A DNA stretch of 64,000 bases, from the NCBI GenBank assembly GCA_045535515.1, contig JAZSLT010000010.1:1916-65915 (forward strand). Direction: 5' to 3'. This document shows, piece after piece, positions 2,527 through 56,530 of the stretch; position 1 is the first letter of the stretch, and every line of letters begins with the position of its first letter. The DNA comes from Clostridia bacterium (GTDB lineage Bacteria; Bacillota; Clostridia; UMGS1883; UMGS1540). The position numbers were made by a program, and so were the translations under genes. The notes below the pieces were generated by a model. The model was not told the origin of the DNA. It was given only the letters and a program-made list of their open reading frames with translations, and did no database searches.

Positions 2527-3867
2527 ATGCAGAAGAATGACATTTTAACCGTTAAGATTATCGGTCAGGGCTGTGAGGGGGAAGGCGTTGCCAAAATGGA
2601 GGGCTTCCCCCTCTTTATCCCGGGTGCAATCCATGGCGAAGTGTGCCGTGTGCAGGTGGTAAAGCTTGCAAAAGGGCATGGCTTTGCCCGTCTTTTAGAG
2701 GTGGCCGAGCCATCCAAGCATCGCGCCGCGCCGCCTTGTCCCGTGTACACAAAATGCGGCGGCTGCAGCCTTATGCACATGGATAGAGAGGCGCAGCTTT
2801 TGTGGAAACGCGCGCGCGTGAAGGAGGCCTTTCGCCATATCGGCGGCATGGCGGCCACGGTTGCGCCTGTGGAAACGGACGGACGCACCACAGGATATCG
2901 TAATAAAATACAAATGCCGGTAGCGGCGATTAGAGGGCGCATCGCGGCCGGCTTTTTTGCGCCTCGCTCCCACCGCATCGTGCCTTGCGAGGGGTGCCTT
3001 TTGCAATCGGAAAAGACAGGGGAAATTATCCGCACCATCACGCGCTGGATGGAAGAAAACCATATCGCGCCCTACGAGGAGGAAACGCATTGCGGGCAGG
3101 TGCGCCATATCTTCGTGCGCGAAGGGGACGGCGGCGAATGTATGGTCTCCCTCATCACGCGCACGCGCACGCTTTCGGCGACCCGGGAGCTTACAGAGGC
3201 GCTCCTTAAAAAAGGCGTTACTACCATTTTGCAGAACATAAACCCCGCGCGTACCAATGTCATTTTAGGCGCGGAAACGCGCGTTTTATACGGAAGCGGC
3301 AAGGTGCAAAAAAGCCTTGGCGACCTCACCTTTTCCGTTTCGCACCATTCCTTCTTTCAAGTCAACGCACCCATGGCCGAGCGGTTGTACGAAAAGGGAC
3401 TTTCCCTTCTCGGCGATATTGCCGACAAAACGGTTTTCGACCTGTACTGCGGCATCGGCTCCATCTCCCTCTTTTTAGCGAGGCGGGCGAAAAAGGTCAT
3501 CGGCGTTGAAATCGTACCCGAGGCTGTTCGCGATGCCGAGGAAAATGCCCGCCGAAACGGCATAGACAACGCCGTTTTCTATGCAGGCGATGCCTTCGAA
3601 GTAACAAAGGCCTGTATGGAAAAGGGCGAGCGCGCTGATATCGCGGTGGTAGACCCGCCACGAAAGGGCTGCGACCCCCGGCTCCTCGAAACGCTTTTTT
3701 CGATGCGGCCGGAGAAAATATTGTATATTTCCTGTAACCCGGCCACCCTCGCGCGCGACGCAAAGGCTTTGGCCGAAAAAGGCTATCGCATCGGCACCGT
3801 GTATCCTTTTGATTTATTTCCGAACACAAGCCATGTGGAGTGCGTCGTGCGACTATGTCGCACATAA
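2527..3867 (+). CDS. rlmD: 23S rRNA (uracil-C5)-methyltransferase RlmD/RumA family (TRAM domain, 4Fe-4S cysteines, SAM MTase)
   Basis: 446 aa. N-terminal TRAM domain, a CxxxxxCGGC cysteine cluster, a class I SAM-binding motif (DLYCGIGSISL) and the C-terminal catalytic Cys region. Confidence 0.8.
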   Translation: MQKNDILTVKIIGQGCEGEGVAKMEGFPLFIPGAIHGEVCRVQVVKLAKGHGFARLLEVAEPSKHRAAPPCPVYTKCGGCSLMHMDREAQLLWKRARVKEAFRHIGGMAATVAPVETDGRTTGYRNKIQMPVAAIRGRIAAGFFAPRSHRIVPCEGCLLQSEKTGEIIRTITRWMEENHIAPYEEETHCGQVRHIFVREGDGGECMVSLITRTRTLSATRELTEALLKKGVTTILQNINPARTNVILGAETRVLYGSGKVQKSLGDLTFSVSHHSFFQVNAPMAERLYEKGLSLLGDIADKTVFDLYCGIGSISLFLARRAKKVIGVEIVPEAVRDAEENARRNGIDNAVFYAGDAFEVTKACMEKGERADIAVVDPPRKGCDPRLLETLFSMRPEKILYISCNPATLARDAKALAEKGYRIGTVYPFDLFPNTSHVECVVRLCRT

Positions 3868-4012
3868 GACGCATCGATATAAATCTCTTACGAGATTTTC
3901 GATATATCCTAAAGGATTCGATATGTGCCAAGGCACTCGATATGTTTCCTTCGGAAACGAGCAAGGCGAGTATGTCGCACACAACACGCATCGATATAAA
4001 TCTCTTGCGCGG
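3843..4012 (+). repeat. CGATAT box/hairpin array (family A, locus 1) with an internal ~40-bp direct repeat
   Basis: TCGATAT boxes start at 3874, 3899, 3918 and 3937 (spacing 25, 19, 19 bp). Each is followed by a different short hairpin: aaatctc/gagattt, atcc/ggat, gtgcc/ggcac, gtttcc/ggaaac. The segment 3843-3883 is repeated at 3972-4012. Confidence 0.7.
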
Positions 4013-4082
4013 CTTTCGGTTGTTCCGTGCATCGCACAAAAAGAGGCAGAAAAAACAATCCCTCCGCGTTTGCTACGCAAAC

Positions 4083-4112
4083 CCGCCTCCCTTTACACAA
4101 GGGAGGCTTTTT
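4083..4112 (+). terminator. intrinsic terminator hairpin (gcctccc...gggaggc + T-run), likely for rlmD
   Basis: A GC-rich 7-bp stem followed by TTTTTATTT. Confidence 0.5.
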
Positions 4113-4139
4113 ATTTGCACACGGAAGCATTCAAAATTA

Positions 4140-4178
4140 AGAAAGAAATCCGCTGTAAGGCGGATTTCTTTCTTATTC
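4140..4178. terminator. hairpin aagaaagaaatccgc-tgtaa-ggcggatttctttctt (first copy)
   Basis: A 15-bp stem flanked by A-rich and T-rich runs. An identical copy lies at 4353-4391. Confidence 0.5.
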
Positions 4179-4249
4179 GTTTTTATTTTGTTTTTACCTT
4201 GTGGGGTCTGTGCAGTTTTTGGGGGCGAAAGAAAAGTGTGCAGATTGTG

Positions 4250-4329
4250 CAAACTGAGCGAAAACAAGGCGTAGCCTTGTTTTCGGTTACCCGAAAGCGT
4301 ACATGGGTACGCTGAGTGGCGAAGTTTGT
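4250..4329 (+). ncRNA. three-way-junction structured repeat, copy E1 (unclassified RNA-like element)
   Basis: P1 caaact/agtttg. P2 cgaaaacaaggc-gta-gccttgttttcg. Conserved acccgaa(a)g linker. P3 cgtac-atgg-gtacg. Conserved gagtggcgaag. Confidence 0.45.
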
Positions 4330-11248: not shown

Positions 11249-11383
11249 ATTGTTCCCTCGCCTTCCAAAATTTTTTTCATTATATCACGCGGCGGGGGTG
11301 TTGTCAATACGGAAAAGGAAGAAAGGTGAAAAGAATGGGGTGGATGACAATGTTTAGGCGATATAATAGATGCAGGTGTTTTT

Positions 11384-11560
11384 AGTGATATTCCAACTTC
11401 GTTGGCGTGATATTTTTGATAAATCAAAAGTGATATTGAAACCTTATGGTTTCAGTGATATTATATTTGCCATTAAACTGTGCGAAGCAAAATATCACTC
11501 GGCGAAGCCGAATATAACTGCGAAGCAATATAACTTGCCAAAGGCAAATATAACTGAAAA
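11384..11560 (+). repeat. GTGATATT / AATATAACT box-hairpin array (family B)
   Basis: Four GTGATATT boxes, each followed by a different small hairpin (ccaac/gttgg, tttgat/tcaaaa, gaaacc/ggtttc). Then an inverted AATATCAC. Then three AATATAACT boxes separated by tcggc/gccga, gc/gc and tgcc/ggca hairpins. Confidence 0.65.
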
Positions 11561-11590
11561 AAGACATCCATTGGATGTCTTTTTTCTGGT
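11556..11590. terminator. bidirectional terminator (agacatcca-ttgg-atgtct flanked by A/T runs) downstream of the tRNA pair
   Basis: A hairpin with an A-run on one side and a T-run on the other. On the minus strand it immediately follows the CCA end of the tRNA. Confidence 0.55.
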
Positions 11591-26101: not shown

Positions 26102-27100
26102 ATGAAGGAACGCAAAATCGTAACGATTGGCGGCGGAACGGGGATGTCCACAATGCTCCGCGGCCTGAAGAAGTACACGCGAAATCTGACGGCGATTGTC
26201 ACGATGGCCGATGACGGCGGCGGGAGCGGGCGTCTTAGAGAAGACCTCGGGATGCTGCCGCCCGGCGATGTGCGAAACTGCCTTGTGGCGCTGGCCGATG
26301 CCGAGCCGGTGATGGAAAGCCTTTTCCGGTACCGCTTTTCCGGCGGAGAGCTGAGCGGCCAGAGCCTTGGCAATCTCATTATCGCCGCCATGGATAGCAT
26401 GTGCGGAAGCTTTGAGGAGGCCATTCGCCGCACCGGCGAGGTACTGGCGATTTCCGGCCGCGTGTTGCCGGTGACGACCGAGGATATCCACATTACCGCG
26501 CGGTTTTCCGACGGCGCTGAGGTGCAGGGGGAATCCCATATCGGGGATGCCACAAACGAGCATGGCGGCCGCATTGAAAAGGTGCGGCTGGTGCCGCAAA
26601 AGGCGAAGGCGGCAACAGGTGTTCTGGAAAGCATACGCGAGGCGGATGCCATTTTGCTCGGCCCGGGCAGCCTTTATACCAGCATTATTCCAAATCTTCT
26701 GGTAGAAGGCGTGGCCGATGCGCTGCGGAGGACAAGTGCGCCGAAAATCTATGTTTGTAATGTGATGGGCCAGCCGGGTGAAACCGAGGGGTATACGGCC
26801 TTTGACCATGTGGAGGCTATTTTGCAGCACGGCGGAGAGGGCATCATTGATTATTGCGTCGTCAACACCGAAAAAATAGAGGATGCGGTGCGCCGGCGCT
26901 ATGCCGAGGAGGGCGTAGGCCCCGTTTTGGTGGACGCGCCGCGGTTTCGGGAAAGGGGCATCGGTCTTATCGGGGCCGAGGTTTTAGGGCGAAAAGAAAA
27001 TCTGGCACGCCATAATCCTGAAAAGCTGGCAGAATGTATTTTTGATTTTTTAGAGGGACTTTTACGAAGGGGATACATACGCGAGGAAAGCGGCGCATAG
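26102..27100 (+). CDS. yvcK: gluconeogenesis factor YvcK / CofD-like (UPF0052) family protein
   Basis: MKERKIVTIGGGTGMSTMLRGLK N-terminus characteristic of YvcK. Start at 26102 with an RBS; the upstream part of the ORF-track frame overlaps the previous gene. Confidence 0.75.
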   Translation: MKERKIVTIGGGTGMSTMLRGLKKYTRNLTAIVTMADDGGGSGRLREDLGMLPPGDVRNCLVALADAEPVMESLFRYRFSGGELSGQSLGNLIIAAMDSMCGSFEEAIRRTGEVLAISGRVLPVTTEDIHITARFSDGAEVQGESHIGDATNEHGGRIEKVRLVPQKAKAATGVLESIREADAILLGPGSLYTSIIPNLLVEGVADALRRTSAPKIYVCNVMGQPGETEGYTAFDHVEAILQHGGEGIIDYCVVNTEKIEDAVRRRYAEEGVGPVLVDAPRFRERGIGLIGAEVLGRKENLARHNPEKLAECIFDFLEGLLRRGYIREESGA

Positions 27101-27148
27101 AGGACGCGTTCCCGAAAGCGTTAAATCACGCGAAGAAAGGCATATATT

Positions 27149-28254: not shown

Positions 28255-28325
28255 CGGCGATATAAATTCTTCTCGGAATTTGTGATATGCTGCAAGTAAC
28301 TCGATATGTCCCTTCGGGACGAGAA
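28255..28325 (+). repeat. CGATAT box/hairpin array (family A, locus 2) in the 5' leader of pgeF
   Basis: ggCGATATaaattc..gaattt, gtGATATgctgc, then CTCGATATGTCCC-TTC-GGGACGAG immediately before the RBS AAAGGAG and the ATG at 28338. Confidence 0.65.
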
Positions 28326-30660: not shown

Positions 30661-30760
30661 TGCGATATATTTGCCTTGCAAATGCGATATACAGGCTACG
30701 CCTGCTCGATATGCCTCGCGGCTCGATATGTTGCCTTGCGGCAACGAGAATTTTACTTAT
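30661..30760 (+). repeat. CGATAT box/hairpin array (family A, locus 3)
   Basis: gtGCGATAT-atttgc/gcaaat, GCGATAT-caggc/gcctg, CGATAT-gcc..ggc, and CTCGATATG-ttgcc-ttgc-ggcaa-CGAG as the terminal module. Confidence 0.65.
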
Positions 30761-44480: not shown

Positions 44481-45800
44481 TTATCCGAAGGTCGGCCGTC
44501 CTTTGCGGATATTGTACGCCGCGCCGAGAAACGCCCAGTTCTGGCGGAAGGGACGCATAATCGTCCAGTAGCCGCTGCCGAGGAGGTTAAATTCGTCAAT
44601 AAGGTCATATTTCGCACTTATACTGCGGATATCCTCAAACCAGACGATGTGCGCTCTTCCCCGCTCGTCGCGATAGCGGAAGAAGGGCGATTGGGAAGGC
44701 GCATCAAACTGGATTTCCGCGCCATACTGCGCCGCCAGCCGGACGGCCTGCTGGTTCCCGATATTCGTCGCGCGGTCACCCTTTTCATAAGGAAGCGTCC
44801 AGTCATAGCCGTAATTCGGAATGCCCATGAGAATTTTACCTGGCGGAATTTCCGTTACCGCATATTCCACCACCTCGCGAACGCGGTTAAGTGGCGCTAC
44901 GGCCAGCGGCGGCCCGTAGGAATAGCCCCACTCGTAGGTCATGAGAAGCACCGTGTCCACAATCGCGCCAATCGCGCCGTAGTCGTGCGCCTCGTAAAGA
45001 AGGCCCGGCTGGTCGGCGTATGTTTTGGGCGCAAGGTCAACATGGGTGGGATAGCCGGCCGCGTGCAGCTGCGCCGTTGCATTTTCGAGGAAGCGGATAA
45101 AGCCTTCGCTGTCCTCGGGGGAAATGTACTCAAAGTCGATGTCAAGCCCCTGATACCCTTTTCGCTGCATCGTTTCGATAATGGCGGCGAGCACTTTGTT
45201 TTGCAAGGCTTCATTCCGAAAAAGAAGGGACGCGCGCTCGCCGCTGAAGTTGCCGTCCTCGGTAATGGAGGAAAGGAGCATGTAGGGCGCTACATTTTCG
45301 GAAAGCGCCGCCTCGATAAGCGGGAGGTCGTTTAGGGTGATGAGCGTACCCTCCGCCGTAAAGCCGTAGCCGAACACCGTAAGGCGCGAAAGATACGGAA
45401 GCGTCGTGCGGAGCGTCGGGCGGTTTATGTTCGGGTAGGCGTAGCCGGAGACGGTGAGCGTGCGCCTCTTATCCATCCGAAAGGAAATGGTGAGCTGCTG
45501 CCCCGGAAGGAGGGTGGGGTTTAAAATCAGCTCGGGATTATTGCGGCGTATTTCGCCCGTGGTGGTGCCAAAGGCGCGCGCGATGGAGAAGAGCGAATCT
45601 CCCGGCCGCACCGTGTACACCTCGTCGGGGAAAAGAATGAGAAGCGCCTGCCCCACGACAAGCGTGTCAGAGGCGGCAAGACCGTTGTCCGACAAAATGC
45701 GCTGATACGAAACGCCGTACCGGCGGGCGATGCTGCGCACCGTATCGCCGCGGCGAACGACATAAATTTCCAAAACAAACACCTGCCTTTTTGTTTTCAT
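44481..45800 (-). CDS. LysM-domain glycoside hydrolase family 18 protein (YaaH/SleL-like peptidoglycan hydrolase)
   Basis: Two LysM repeats (VRRGDTVRSIARRYGVS; TVRPGDSLFSIARAFG) followed by a GH18 chitinase-like TIM barrel. Confidence 0.65.
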   Translation of the reverse strand: MKTKRQVFVLEIYVVRRGDTVRSIARRYGVSYQRILSDNGLAASDTLVVGQALLILFPDEVYTVRPGDSLFSIARAFGTTTGEIRRNNPELILNPTLLPGQQLTISFRMDKRRTLTVSGYAYPNINRPTLRTTLPYLSRLTVFGYGFTAEGTLITLNDLPLIEAALSENVAPYMLLSSITEDGNFSGERASLLFRNEALQNKVLAAIIETMQRKGYQGLDIDFEYISPEDSEGFIRFLENATAQLHAAGYPTHVDLAPKTYADQPGLLYEAHDYGAIGAIVDTVLLMTYEWGYSYGPPLAVAPLNRVREVVEYAVTEIPPGKILMGIPNYGYDWTLPYEKGDRATNIGNQQAVRLAAQYGAEIQFDAPSQSPFFRYRDERGRAHIVWFEDIRSISAKYDLIDEFNLLGSGYWTIMRPFRQNWAFLGAAYNIRKGRPTFG

Positions 45801-45836
45801 TGTATGCGCGGAGAGGAGGGGGTGTGCAGGAAAGGA

Positions 45837-45865
45837 TTGCATTTTTTTAAGGGGTGTGGTATAAT
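45837..45865 (+). promoter_or_regulatory. promoter (TTGCAT, 17 bp, TGgTATAAT) driving the family-A array leader and the DUF1624 gene
   Basis: -35 at 45837-45842 and extended -10 TATAAT at 45860-45865. The predicted transcription start is about 25 nt before the first CGATAT box. Confidence 0.5.
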
Positions 45866-45889
45866 GAATTTAATTGCAAAGCAATTAAA

Positions 45890-46190
45890 TTCAGCGATAT
45901 AAATTCCTGACGGAATTTGCGATATGTACTTCGTACGCGATATATCTTCGATGCGATATGTCCCTTCGGGACGAGAAATAGGAATTTATATCATATCGCA
46001 ACGGAATGAAATGGAGTTATATCGCATTTGAACAGAGTGAAAATATATCGCACGAACGAAGTGAGTATATCGCCAAAAGTCGGCATCTAAATTGTGCACG
46101 AATTCAGCGATATAAATTCCTGACGGAATTTGCGATATGTACTTCGTACGCGATATATCTTCGATGCGATATGTCCCTTCGGGACGGAAA
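45890..46190 (+). repeat. CGATAT box/hairpin array (family A, locus 4): unit, inverted boxes, unit
   Basis: A near-perfect 88-bp direct repeat (45890-45975 and 46098-46186). Each copy has four GCGATAT boxes separated by aattcc/ggaatt, gtac/gtac and gtccc/gggac hairpins. The central 45976-46097 carries four inverted boxes (ATATCGC). The array ends in CGATATGTCCC-TTC-GGGACGG + RBS + ATG at 46203. Confidence 0.7.
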
Positions 46191-46202
46191 AAGGAGAAGA
46201 AA

Positions 46203-46940
46203 ATGGGAAAAGAGCGCATTTTTTGGATAGATGAATGGCGGGGCGTAGCCCTCCTTGCCATGATACTACATCATATTGCGTTTAACCTGACGGATTTTCT
46301 GGCGCTGCCGTTGCCGCTTGTCCGGGCGGTGCTTTCGAGCCGCGCATTTGACGCGGTGCAGACGGTGTTTATTGCTATTTTCTTTTGCATATCCGGCATT
46401 TGCTGCCGTTTCTCCAAAAGGCCTTATCTTCGCGCGGGGCGCGTCCTTCTCGGGGCCGCGGCCGTGACGGCGGTGACATGGGCGCTTTTTCCGGACGAGG
46501 CGATATGGTTTGGTGTTTTGCATTGTCTTGGTGCGTGCATGCTTTTGTATGCGGTTTTCGGGCGGTGGCTCCGGAAAATACCGCCGCTTTTGGGAATTGC
46601 CGGAGCTATTCTTCTTTTTGTTATTACCTGCCGCGTGCCAGACGGATTTTTGCTTTTTCTCCCCTTGCCGGCCGGTTGGTATTGCGGCGGTCTTCTTACG
46701 ATTTTCGGCTTTTCCGCGCCGCTTTTTACCTCGCTCGACTATGTGCCGCTTCTGCCGCACCTGTTTCTGTTTTTGATAGGCGTGTTTATCGGCCGTCTGC
46801 CGCTGAAAAATAGTCGGCAGCACAGCCGTTTTCTGGCGTTTTTGGGGCGGCACAGCCTTTCGGTCTATCTTTTGCATCAGCCGCTTTTGTTCGGGGTGTT
46901 TTTGTGTTTCGAAAAAATCCTAGGAGGGATGAAACTATGA
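46203..46940 (+). CDS. DUF1624 / acyltransferase-3-like membrane protein
   Basis: Polytopic membrane protein with the N-terminal WIDEWRGVALLAMILHH motif typical of DUF1624. Confidence 0.55.
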   Translation: MGKERIFWIDEWRGVALLAMILHHIAFNLTDFLALPLPLVRAVLSSRAFDAVQTVFIAIFFCISGICCRFSKRPYLRAGRVLLGAAAVTAVTWALFPDEAIWFGVLHCLGACMLLYAVFGRWLRKIPPLLGIAGAILLFVITCRVPDGFLLFLPLPAGWYCGGLLTIFGFSAPLFTSLDYVPLLPHLFLFLIGVFIGRLPLKNSRQHSRFLAFLGRHSLSVYLLHQPLLFGVFLCFEKILGGMKL

Positions 46941-55606: not shown

Positions 55607-56389
55607 ATGAAAATATTGGTTTTTGCGGACCTTCACTACTATAGCGGCACCGAGCCGAAATTTGACACGAGTAAAAAGCTTGTGCAGTATGCCGACGCGA
55701 TGCTGCAGGCGCTTATTAAGAAGGCAGAGGAAGAAAAGGTCGATTTTGTTGTCAATCTGGGCGACAGTATTCAGGATAACAACGATAAAGAGGGCGACAA
55801 GGAGAGCCTTCGCCTTGTTTTCGAGAGACAAAAGGCGTTTCCCTGCCCGTGCTATACGGTACTCGGTAATCACGATATGAAAATGATGGACAGTAAAAAG
55901 GAGGTCGAGGCCATTTTAGGGTATGAAACGACCTATAGCTTTGACAGGGGCGGGTATCATTTCGTGTTTCTGACAACGGATGTCGATACGGAAAAGGACT
56001 TTTTGCGCGGCGGCATACACAGAACTTGGGTGCTCCCCGAAAAGACGCTCCGCTGGCTCGAAATCGATTTAGAGAAAAACACGCTGCCGTGTATCCTTTT
56101 TACCCACTTTGCCTTAGCGGAGGACGAAAGCATTACGGACGAATGTCTGTTCCTCAAAAACAGAAACGAGGTGAAGGCCGTTTTGGCCCGCCATGACAAT
56201 ATAAAGGCCGCCATCTGCGGCCACCAGCATATAGGAAGGGTACATAAAGAGGGCGGTATTCCCTATTATCTCATCGCATCTCCCACGGCGGCGGAGGAGG
56301 ACGCGCCGGGTGTGCCGTGCGGCGCGTATGCGATTTTGGAAACCGAGGGGGAAGAAGTTACGGTTTTGGAGAAACGCATCCGGCTGTAA
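55607..56389 (+). CDS. calcineurin-like metallophosphoesterase
   Basis: Motifs (ADLH, GDSIQD, GNHD and GHQH) in order. 260 aa. Confidence 0.7.
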   Translation: MKILVFADLHYYSGTEPKFDTSKKLVQYADAMLQALIKKAEEEKVDFVVNLGDSIQDNNDKEGDKESLRLVFERQKAFPCPCYTVLGNHDMKMMDSKKEVEAILGYETTYSFDRGGYHFVFLTTDVDTEKDFLRGGIHRTWVLPEKTLRWLEIDLEKNTLPCILFTHFALAEDESITDECLFLKNRNEVKAVLARHDNIKAAICGHQHIGRVHKEGGIPYYLIASPTAAEEDAPGVPCGAYAILETEGEEVTVLEKRIRL

Positions 56390-56390
56390 T

Positions 56391-56480
56391 GGAGCTAAAT
56401 TGACCTTCGGTCAGCTAAATTGCCTGCGGCAGCTAAATTCGCCTTGCGGCGAGCTGAATGTGCTTCGCACGCGAAATTAT
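56391..56480 (+). repeat. AGCTAAATT box/hairpin array (family C)
   Basis: AGCTAAATT-gacc-ttc-ggtc, AGCTAAATT-gcc-tgc-ggc, AGCTAAATT-cgcc-ttgc-ggcg, AGCTGAATG-tgc-ttc-gca, CGCGAAATT. It starts 2 nt after the phosphoesterase stop codon. Confidence 0.65.
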
Positions 56481-56490
56481 GGCAGACATT

Positions 56491-56530
56491 AAAAAAGGAT
56501 GGAATGCTTTTGCATTCCATCCTTTTTTGC
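56491..56530. terminator. bidirectional terminator (aaaaaaggatggaatgc-ttt-tgcattccatcctttttt)
   Basis: A 14-bp stem flanked by A6 and T6 runs, between convergent genes. Confidence 0.65.

Follow-up and report, generated by a model that had tools for sequence, protein, structure and literature searches.

Box arrays in the window

The stretch analysed here, hereafter the window, comprises 64,000 nucleotides (nt) of contig JAZSLT010000010.1 from a Clostridia bacterium (assembly GCA_045535515.1). It carries arrays of a simple unit plan, in which a 7-nt box is directly followed by a hairpin of variable sequence. In the arrays of Family A the box reads (T/G)CGATAT. These arrays are very probably a structured-RNA module of the Gut-1 type, and each corresponds to the first half of a composite RNA of about 200 nt whose second half contains the box in reverse complement (the antibox).

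The initial annotation had described such boxes and hairpins at four loci, and the sequence bears this out. Every stem that it quoted is present, and its period of 16-25 nt is exact, the measured box-to-box distances being 25/19/19, 25/19, 22/22/17 and 25/18/16 nt at the four loci. The word CGATAT occurs 85 times in the window, where 31.3 +/- 6.0 occurrences are expected and none of 100 shuffles reaches 85. The excess is clustered at 3875-3997 (five boxes), 28258-28307 (two, plus one TGATAT), 30663-30729 (four) and 45895-46172 (12). When folded one by one, nearly all inter-box intervals are self-complementary from end to end. For example, the hairpins of the first array (A1) are aaatctc-ttac-gagattt, atcc-taaa-ggat, gtgcc-aa-ggcac and gtttcc-ttcg-ggaaac, while those of 45894-45975, an array with four GCGATAT boxes, are aaattcc/ggaattt, gtac/gtac, atc/gat and gtccc-UUCG-gggac.

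Although all four loci are real, not all of them are simple arrays. The locus at 45890-46190 consists of a sense array (45894-45975), a half with inverted boxes (45993-46073, four ATATCGC) and a second sense array (46107-46188). The array at 28257-28325 is degenerate, with one interval lacking a hairpin. The terminal module that had been thought common to all four, CTCGATATGT-hairpin-CGAG, is present at 3936, 28300 and 30722, whereas the 45.9-kb copies carry TGCGATATGT in its place and one of them ends in CGGA.

Two further loci have the same architecture, 11358-11590 on the minus strand and 56393-56480 on the plus strand, and the window holds at least nine array units in total. Copies with variant boxes are scattered through untranslated regions (UTRs), roughly one per 7 kb of the window, and KCGAUAU, GUGAUAU, GUUAUAU and GCUAAAU boxes coexist in this one genome. 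The window copies differ in every stem, with the exception of the duplicated arrays A and B at 45.9 kb. Other periodic pentamers in the window (e.g., at 27086-27139) were inspected and contain no box/hairpin array. Coding repeats were considered and rejected. The open reading frames (ORFs) called across 3809-4315 and comparable positions are spurious, and the genes on either side of the arrays are well supported.

Array A1 is situated in the 3' UTR of an rlmD/RumA-type methyltransferase gene, 7 nt after the stop codon and ahead of the terminator at 4085 (Table 1). The array at 30662-30748 begins 4 nt past the stop codon of a ComM/YifB-type gene, and that at 56393 begins right past the stop of ORF 55607-56389; a terminator-like hairpin with a T run, read from the sequence without a scan, follows the latter at about 56493-56530. 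The degenerate array lies between a DUF3798 gene and the ribosome-binding site (RBS) and ATG (28338) of a PgeF-type gene, and array B is directly upstream of the RBS and ATG (46203) of an HGSNAT/Acyl_transf_3 gene. The 11.4-kb element is directly downstream of tRNA-Glu and tRNA-Met. The hairpin at its head, called P0, resembles the terminator of the tRNA operon.

Table 1. Features of the array loci in the window (CM, covariance model)
Positions	Strand	Feature	Basis or score
2527..3867	+	rlmD/RumA-type methyltransferase gene	stop codon 3865-3867
3842..3872	+	P0 hairpin, directly 5' of the first box, overlapping the rlmD stop	fold and sequence
3874..3961	+	solo sense array A1, four TCGATAT boxes with hairpins, then GAG	CM 70.9 bits, E = 2e-16
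3971..4006	+	partial direct duplicate of the array start: 3' part of P0, TCGATAT, 5' arm of hairpin 1 (aaatctctt)	sequence
4085..4115	+	intrinsic terminator closing the rlmD-array transcript	GCCTCCCTTTACACAAGGGAGGC then TTTTTATTTG
11358..11590	-	complete Gut-1-type composite	Rfam RF01706 match, CM matches, centre complementarity
28257..28325	+	degenerate solo array with boxes GCGATAT, GTGATAT and TCGATAT; one of its three hairpins not intact	CM 49 bits
30662..30748	+	solo sense array, two GCGATAT and two TCGATAT, four hairpins, GAG	CM 56.8 bits
45837..45865	+	promoter-like site TTGCAT, 17 nt, TGg-TATAAT (extended -10)	read from sequence
45866..45975	+	P0 hairpin (45866-45892) and composite first half 'A'	CM 87.4 bits; Rfam Gut-1 33.4 bits
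45981..45992	+	centre GGAATTTATATC, complementary to box 1 (GATAT) and the 5' arm of hairpin 1 (AAATTCC)	complementarity
45993..46073	+	second half, four ATATCGC antiboxes, tandem G·A/A·G hairpins	sequence, folds; e.g., AC-GA-AC-gaa-GU-GA-GU
46100..46188	+	array 'B' (46107-46188), in an 86-nt stretch identical to 45887-45972	CM, sequence identity
56393..56480	+	solo array, three GCTAAAT and one GCTGAAT, four hairpins	CM 17.7 bits, E = 0.006; periodic-box scan

Related loci and their hosts

Relatives were collected by scanning 185,579 species genomes for GCGATAT-N8-20-GCGATAT-N8-20-GCGATAT, which gave at least 120 loci; 18 contigs provided further material. About 84 of the listed loci are from gut or rumen metagenome-assembled genomes (MAGs), labelled Clostridia, Eubacteriales, Oscillospiraceae, Ruminococcaceae, Acutalibacteraceae, Ruminococcus, Eubacterium and Faecousia. 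The remaining 36 or so are scattered over phyla, which agrees with a rough estimate of about 40 chance matches, a hand calculation assuming uniform base composition. The nearest named RumA proteins belong to Ruminococcaceae and Clostridia MAGs; an exact match to the RumA protein of the window was not on record. The Family-A arrays of the window belong to an uncultured member of the gut Clostridia, to which MAGs of Ruminococcaceae, Oscillospiraceae and Acutalibacteraceae are the nearest relatives with names.

A CM built from 35 four-box arrays of the relatives finds 136 instances in their loci and recovers all Family-A sense arrays of the window, with 87 to 49 bits (E = 1e-20 to 7e-11). At lower scores it matches the copies at 11.4 kb, the one at 56.4 kb and the second half. 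A metagenome scan seeded with ComM/YifB for sites orthologous to 28257 and 30662 gave only 49-56% identity (soil, water and similar sources) and no close relatives. Among the matches listed from a scan of viral contigs for three CGATAT boxes there were single chance matches only, and the phage and plasmid collections searched contained no array matches.

Conservation of pairing

In the CM alignment, standard pairs occupy 88.7% of the cells, compared with 50.8% in column shuffles, and 874 cells are changed on both sides, compared with 238. None of 500 shuffles, which give 0.206, reaches the covariation score of 0.861 found for the arrays, and the score falls to 0.02-0.15 when the partners are slid by one to three columns. 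Double changes occur in all 17 modelled pairs. Since this alignment is fitted to the model, an alignment-free test was added, in which the intervals are defined by consecutive boxes only. All four outermost positions are Watson-Crick paired in 53% of 356 distinct intervals, but in only 1.9% when the arms are taken from different intervals and 0.8% after shuffling. The arms comprise 63 different 4-nt words.

It is thus firmly established that the pairing of the hairpins is conserved while their sequence is free, and that selection acts on a structure. The initial annotation had proposed this from the window alone and had suggested looking for periodic arrays in related genomes and testing their covariation; such arrays are present there, and changes on both sides of the pairs are in excess over shuffles. 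It had also set aside neutral minisatellite drift, rightly, given that minisatellites would show similar units instead of 63 different stem words. Sites in double-stranded DNA, of the iteron or operator kind, would account for short direct repeats that lie between genes in both orientations. The spacing of the boxes is irregular (16-25 bp) and without helical phasing, however, compensatory changes, which occur in every spacer, play no part in duplex DNA binding, and the strand asymmetries described below indicate RNA. Drift and duplex sites are both scarcely credible explanations.

The initial annotation allowed for either RNA or cruciform DNA. Several asymmetries between the strands bear on this choice. 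The first-half hairpins contain 30 G·U or U·G pairs and 10 A·C or C·A pairs (P = 0.002). In the second-half hairpins, read on the sense strand of the composite, 53 of the 60 internal mismatches are G·A or A·G, which would read U·C or C·U on the other strand; 25 of 65 such hairpins have the tandem motif stem-GA-2 bp-loop-2 bp-GA-stem (e.g., AUC-GA-GC-aaa-GC-GA-GAU). Loops on the sense strand begin with U (TTC 47 times and GAA never, TGAC 16 and GTCA 0, TTGC 9 and GCAA 0), and UUCG-type loops predominate in the array hairpins. On crude ORF calls, 29 sense arrays lie within 100 nt downstream of the end of a co-oriented ORF and two lie next to an ORF on the opposite strand (P = 5e-7). Intrinsic terminators are present downstream of arrays, at 4085 in the window and after composites of relatives. 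Given the G·U, G·A and loop asymmetries and the orientation to genes, RNA is favoured over cruciform DNA, and it can be held with good confidence that the arrays act as RNA on the sense strand.

Folding energy was dropped as an argument, because single-sequence z-scores are exceptional for only two copies, 3840-3962 (z = -5.0) and the one at 11.4 kb (z = -6.5), and the two strands behave alike. The evidence for structure is therefore covariation and not stability.

Relationship to the Gut-1 RNA motif

Gut-1 (Rfam RF01706) was introduced by Weinberg et al. (2010, Genome Biol 11:R31, PMC2864571) as a likely RNA outside the riboswitch and cis-regulatory classes, a small RNA from human gut sequences only, presented without organism, function or context (PMC2864571). 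It has been known since 2010 from 43 metagenomic sequences, and a search of the literature for "Gut-1 RNA" and "Gut-1 motif" found no papers beyond the original one.

In the window, Rfam identifies 11487-11556(-) as Gut-1 with 51.7 bits, the gathering threshold being 50, and this is the only copy above threshold. The stretches 45892-45964 and 46105-46177 match the Gut-1 model from end to end with 33.4 bits (E = 8e-5), which is below the 50-bit threshold. At the gathering threshold there is no Gut-1 call at 3874, 28257 or 30662, and Rfam makes none on 10 related composite loci. The Rfam consensus (CAaUGAAAU-hairpin-GUGAAAU-hairpin-GUGAAAU-hairpin-GUGAAAU) has three hairpins and four boxes, and in the cmscan alignment the window boxes fall on the Gut-1 linkers and the intervals on its three helices. 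The Family-A box, (G/U)CGAUAU, differs from the consensus linker at two of seven positions, and the linkers of the seed alignment include GUGAUAU, GUUAUAU and one GCGAUAU. Two of the seeds, BAAZ01000095 and BAAZ01025322, also possess a centre, GGCGAAUAUA, and an AUAUCAC antibox half with G·A hairpins. The synteny of BAAZ01025322 (tRNA, terminator-like hairpin, array) matches that of 11358-11590.

Gut-1 and the window arrays share an architecture, found in gut Clostridia, in which a conserved linker of 7 nt alternates with short covarying hairpins of the UUCG type. As Gut-1 had already been described with this plan, the suggestion that the arrays represent an undescribed class of element is incorrect. 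Family A belongs to the Gut-1 lineage as a variant in the box, one missed at current Rfam thresholds, and annotation based on Rfam misses most copies.

What goes beyond the published motif is the second half, the helix formed by the centre, the link to rlmD and to a gene for a four-helix-bundle protein, and the placement in 3' UTRs. New here are a composite architecture with an alternative helix and tandem-G·A hairpins, a position just past stop codons, and the synteny of rlmD, composite and four-helix-bundle gene. Gut-1 can now be placed in Oscillospiraceae, Ruminococcaceae and Acutalibacteraceae MAGs of human, ruminant and other animal guts, and what has been catalogued amounts to one half of a larger RNA with an internal antisense half and a conserved alternative helix.

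The composite element

Two features of the element were not part of the initial annotation, an inverted partner array and a conserved genomic home. Among the listed loci and the window there are 28 convergent pairs of box and antibox arrays, in which the antibox array lies 30-100 nt past the sense array. The composite begins with the P0 hairpin, which ends in "..AG", followed by four boxes with hairpins, a linker, a centre (for example, GGGAUUUAUAUC) and four antiboxes with three hairpins between them. The antibox, AUAUCGC, is the box in reverse complement. Hairpin 1 reads AAAUYC...GRAUUU in most cases, while hairpin 4 is GC-rich with cUUCGg and is followed by GAG or GUG. After the last antibox there is either an intrinsic terminator (in loci L143, L187, L191 and L229) or an RBS and start codon.

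The window contains two composites, 45866-46073 (+) and 11358-11590 (-). On its own strand the latter consists of a terminator-like P0 (11560-11588), a first half with three GTTATAT and one GTGATAT and their hairpins (11487-11556), the centre GGCAAATATA and a second half with four ATATCAC (11359-11461). At 45.9 kb the promoter-like site listed in Table 1 would put P0 at the 5' end of the transcript. A consensus promoter scanner did not call this site, the -35 element of which matches at three of six positions. Comparable sites are found upstream of P0 in L149 and L158 (TTGATA-17-TATAAT and TATGATATAAT). No antibox array matching the GCTAAAT/GCTGAAT boxes of the 56.4-kb array was found in the window.

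Single-sequence folds of the composites pair boxes with antiboxes (z = -5.0 and -5.7). RNAalifold applied to 18 composites returns the pairings B1:A4, B2:A3, B3:A2 and B4:A1, of 7-8 bp each, together with all local hairpins. Box and antibox types change together: GCGAUAU occurs with AUAUCGC, UCGAUAU with AUAUCGA (L238, 6450-6633) and GUGAUAU with AUAUCAC (the Gut-1 seeds). Some deviations of a single box or antibox are wobble-compatible or compensated, namely A-U in L229, G·U in L187 and U·G in L338. Modelled in this way, the set would form a rod in which four-way junctions connect short helices, a geometry for which the chances appear about even.

Without exception, the centre is complementary to the 5' arm of hairpin 1 together with the five final bases of box 1. 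In 27 elements with 12 different arm words, this complementarity amounts to 6.4 of 7 positions with the cognate arm and 4.7 of 7 with non-cognate arms; the words tracked by the centre include AAAUCCC, GGAUCC, AGAUCCG, CCAUCCC, UCGCC and UUGCC. The centre also changes together with box 1, in that AUAUC accompanies GAUAU and AUAUA accompanies UAUAU. The centre helix is better supported than the box:antibox helices. Since it excludes hairpin 1, the RNA has two conserved, mutually exclusive pairings.

Genomic home of the composite

In nine of the 120 listed loci, a gene for a protein of 113-117 amino acids has its RBS directly past the last antibox. The product is a TIGR02436 "four helix bundle protein" (E = 2e-23) and a member of PF05635, "23S rRNA-intervening sequence protein" (E = 5e-21). 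It is basic (pI 8.9), and the closest solved structure is 2RLD, an entry with five chains. Avd is a nucleic-acid-binding accessory protein of diversity-generating retroelements (DGRs). The PF05635 family is reported to resemble it (PMC10053308), and the literature searched on PF05635 and TIGR02436 contains DGR-related or incidental mentions only. The array-linked subfamily comprises 6970 proteins at E <= 1e-10, of which the best 120 are all at least 81% identical, and between MAGs in which RumA shares only about 70-75% identity, this protein shares 80% or more. Where intervening-sequence (IVS) proteins usually have the motif NIAEG, this subfamily has ANSHEA. Many of the homologues are on contigs of 500-1000 nt, which look as if they were flanked by assembly-breaking repeats. 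Two unannotated "Bacteriophage sp." contigs from human faeces (MT835815.1 and MT835590.1) are 71-73% identical to part of the coding sequence of the four-helix-bundle protein, and do not match the arrays.

All five gene clusters compared (P0187, P0150, P0127, P0209 and P0159) have the order rlmD-type methyltransferase, spacer of 120-460 nt, four-helix-bundle gene, and L323, with a 75%-identical RumA, likewise has methyltransferase, composite and four-helix-bundle gene. The CM finds a sense array and a second half in the spacer of each of these six. The conserved home of the composite in relatives is therefore the spacer between rlmD and the four-helix-bundle gene. The layout of rlmD end, P0 and array seen at the beginning of the window recurs in L129, L176, L186, L321, L323, L326, L337 and L338, and in the first three P0 overlaps the end of the methyltransferase gene, as it does in the window.

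Downstream of RumA orthologues the state of the site varies. L321, whose RumA is 85% identical, has an orthologue of A1 with small changes in the stems; L323 has the composite and the four-helix-bundle gene, L324 and L325 a two-box remnant, and L322 nothing. From this comparison and its position at the rlmD site, A1 appears to be a first half left at the ancestral site, and therefore a remnant of a composite locus. The 36-nt duplicate at 3971-4006 may be read as what is left of a second, downstream "B" array. In L332 an arrangement of array A followed by array B is intact, including a duplicated rlmD 3' end, and the duplicate (2090-2130) heads a T-type B array that is very similar to A1. The duplication of the rlmD 3' end, P0 and first box in both the window and L332 suggests recurrent duplication or recombination at this site.

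A second sense array, often nearly identical to the first, is also present past the four-helix-bundle gene in L240, L326, L330 and L332, and in L334 the next gene is of the Acyl_transf_3 family. Judged by its order of parts, the window region 45866-46188 (array A, second half, array B and then the HGSNAT/Acyl_transf_3 gene) looks like the same locus after loss of the four-helix-bundle gene.

Some of these loci contain additional elements. Arrays with GTGAAGT boxes adjoin the four-helix-bundle gene in L323 (3420-3500) and L336 (385-470). The one in L336 is joined to the final two units of a GCGATAT array, a fusion indicative of modular recombination between box types. In L332, rlmD and P0 are separated by about 270 nt of additional sequence (1040-1310) with long inverted repeats (ggattatccgaac...gttcggataat), which may be an inserted element.

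Possible mechanism

The reading favoured here, at a probability of roughly 0.55, is that the arrays are a Gut-1-type RNA module of mRNAs, in which the boxes pair with the antiboxes of the composite. The arrays would be read on the plus strand within mRNAs, in a 3' UTR right after the stop codon, in an intercistronic spacer or in a 5' leader. The hairpins would serve as mutually orthogonal spacers that keep the boxes exposed, their differing stems avoiding misfolding and recombination, and the boxes would be the functional sites. In the composite, pairing with the four antiboxes would produce a rod of 7-bp helices and four-way junctions that forms the leader of the four-helix-bundle gene, and competition of the centre helix (box 1 and the 5' arm of hairpin 1) with hairpin 1 could turn this leader into a two-state switch. 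The solo arrays (3874, 28257, 30662 and 46107) would be first halves without a partner in cis, either remnants or dispersed copies. Their most likely action would be in cis, by forming structured barriers or processing points along the mRNA that carries them, although their boxes may also meet a partner in trans, such as an antibox RNA or the four-helix-bundle protein. Any specific regulatory role is doubtful.

A number of observations weigh against this reading. Single deviations in boxes or antiboxes leave mismatches in L332 (U·C), L145 (A·C), L337 (C·A) and L176 (G·A), and in the 11.4-kb composite three GUUAUAU boxes face AUAUCAC, which gives U·C. The boxes are almost invariant in a sample ascertained with three GCGATAT, which limits the support for box:antibox pairing. 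Moreover, two inverted copies of one DNA site would give the same covariation of box and antibox, and the box:antibox helices are therefore plausible, not proven. The folding energy of most solo arrays is unremarkable (z = -0.2 to -1.5), with both strands folding equally well. Transcription is deduced only from gene orientation and from promoter and terminator look-alikes, and the scanner missed the window site. Several box types in one genome are awkward for a single trans-acting partner. At the orthologous site the number of units varies (four units, two units, none, or a full composite), and array copies are duplicated around a protein gene, both as repeat DNA would behave. Finally, no four-helix-bundle gene was found in the 64-kb window.

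The main rival is a multivalent protein-binding RNA, in which the boxes bind an oligomeric protein, the candidate being the Avd-like four-helix-bundle protein. The composite would then be an autoregulatory leader whose antiboxes mask the boxes, and the solo arrays would be a regulon or decoys, as in the CsrB/RsmZ systems. This gene is always immediately 3' of the composite, with its RBS past the last antibox, and its product is conserved at 80% identity or more where RumA is at about 70-75%. The protein is basic (pI 8.9), Avd-like by family (PF05635; PMC10053308) and related to the five-chain 2RLD, and each array would offer four to five repeated sites. On the other hand, binding is a candidate property; the window has many arrays, several box variants in its genome and no four-helix-bundle gene; and adjacency is equally expected if the RNA is merely the leader of that gene. 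The protein-binding reading fits most of the data and is compatible with pairing between boxes and antiboxes, with which it can be combined. Taken by itself, however, it is distinctly less probable than the favoured one.

A larger view, which is speculative and unlikely to be correct as a whole, would join arrays, antibox half and Avd-like protein in one unrecognised post-transcriptional system of gut Clostridia, with the solo arrays of 3' UTRs and leaders, which number dozens, as its regulon. A stacked four-way-junction rod would serve as the two-state leader, an oligomeric PF05635 protein would recognise the boxes, and the solo arrays would be reached either by that protein or by "velcro" pairing of boxes and antiboxes in trans. 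An orphan RNA and an orphan protein family may thus explain each other. If true, this would be the first cellular function for Gut-1 and for the very large family of non-DGR "23S rRNA IVS proteins".

The arrays could also be purely cis-acting furniture of mRNAs, with hairpins that block 3'-5' exonucleases and A/U-rich boxes that are cleavage sites of the RNase Y/E type, at which cistrons are separated, and no dedicated partner. REP elements (repetitive extragenic palindromes) in E. coli stabilise mRNA. The 29 arrays within 100 nt of co-oriented stop codons (against two) would suit such a role, as would the placement between stop and terminator (3874-3961 before 4085; 56393 before 56493) or between cistrons (28257; 46107) and the predominance of UUCG-type loops. 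It leaves unexplained why a 7-nt box should be near-invariant across families, and also the antibox half, the centre helix, the tandem-G·A hairpins and the fixed home between rlmD and the four-helix-bundle gene, and is very improbable as a complete account.

Comparison with known repeat and RNA classes

Repeat DNA deserves separate consideration, as a selfish or neutral element of the REP, BIME (bacterial interspersed mosaic element) and REPIN kind, or a miniature inverted-repeat transposable element (MITE), could form hairpins for a transposase or recombinase in single-stranded DNA and have RNA effects as by-products. REPs are imperfect palindromes of 20-40 nt that begin with GTAG at the 5' end; the copies of one genome are nearly the same, and RAYT transposases mobilise them. 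The REP, BIME and REPIN elements of Enterobacteria and Pseudomonas resemble the arrays in that they are multicopy extragenic hairpin repeats, mostly just 3' of genes, often occur in inverted pairs and show compensatory changes in their stems. The number of intergenic copies in the window (at least nine array units in 64 kb), the inverted array pairs that recall REPINs, the 86 identical nt shared by copies A and B, the duplicated flanks including the rlmD 3' end, the variable unit number and presence of arrays at the orthologous site, the fusion of arrays with different boxes in L336 and the frequent location of four-helix-bundle homologues on contigs below 1 kb, as expected beside repeats, would all be in keeping with such an origin.

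The constant part of the arrays, however, is a 7-nt linker; the units, each with a stem of its own, are grouped in ordered fours, and the arrays are not known to have a RAYT. Within a genome MITE and REP copies are near-identical, whereas here the stems differ in every copy (the A/B duplicate excepted) and lack GTAG, and conservation across the families of Clostridia is confined to the boxes. An element that acts only as DNA would not be expected to show strand-specific biases in G·U, G·A and loops, or an orientation bias relative to genes. The solo arrays have neither terminal inverted repeats nor target-site duplications, as a MITE would. In the composites, box 1 with the arm of hairpin 1 and the centre form a 12-nt inverted repeat, again without target-site duplication. 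There was no plasmid match, the two weak phage matches are to the protein-coding part only, and no transposase was seen beside the arrays, although this was not searched for systematically. An origin as selfish DNA is thus improbable.

Other classes were compared in the same way. CRISPR arrays, with repeats of at least 23 nt, unique spacers that are not palindromic, and cas genes, differ from the arrays of the window, in which the repeat is 7 nt and the spacers are palindromes of 9-18 nt; matches to CRISPR direct repeats are at chance level (18 bits, with a cut-off of 38-44). The hairpins are not intrinsic terminators or attenuators, as no U tract follows them and the terminator proper is downstream, at 4085, and within 45750-46260 no terminator-like site was found. 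In type III toxin-antitoxin systems, ToxI-like RNAs are built of tandem repeats, all identical and about 34-40 nt long, that precede the gene of an endoribonuclease toxin. The array units are 16-25 nt long and differ in sequence, and the gene downstream of the composite, where present, encodes a PF05635 four-helix bundle and not ToxN/AbiQ.

The resemblance to CsrB/RsmZ is one of possible mode only. In both cases a short repeated motif is displayed by hairpins of varying sequence, but in CsrB/RsmZ the motif is GGA in the hairpin loops and binds CsrA, whereas in the arrays it is the linker, and an antisense copy is built in. The 23S rRNA IVS with its PF05635 "IVS protein" offers another parallel, as an ORF bracketed by complementary RNA arms, since at the array loci an ORF can sit between the antibox half and box array B (L240, L326, L330 and L332). 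Unlike the IVS and the Avd of DGRs, the array element is not inside an rRNA gene and has no reverse transcriptase or DGR nearby, and its arms consist of 7-bp segments with hairpins between them, in place of one unbroken RNase III stem. The pneumococcal BOX element (boxA-boxB(n)-boxC) is likewise a modular intergenic repeat of Firmicutes with a variable number of units and a predicted RNA fold, but its modules are 45-60 nt long and conserved in sequence, without alternation of boxes and variable hairpins and without an antibox half.

Two incidental matches are unrelated to the arrays. A paper on the 16S-23S spacer of C. difficile, found by the box words, concerns a single GTGATAT and a different 9-bp repeat. 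On the contig of an Oscillospiraceae MAG, L125, positions 2376-2458 carry a ZMP/ZTP riboswitch (RF01750, 61 bits).

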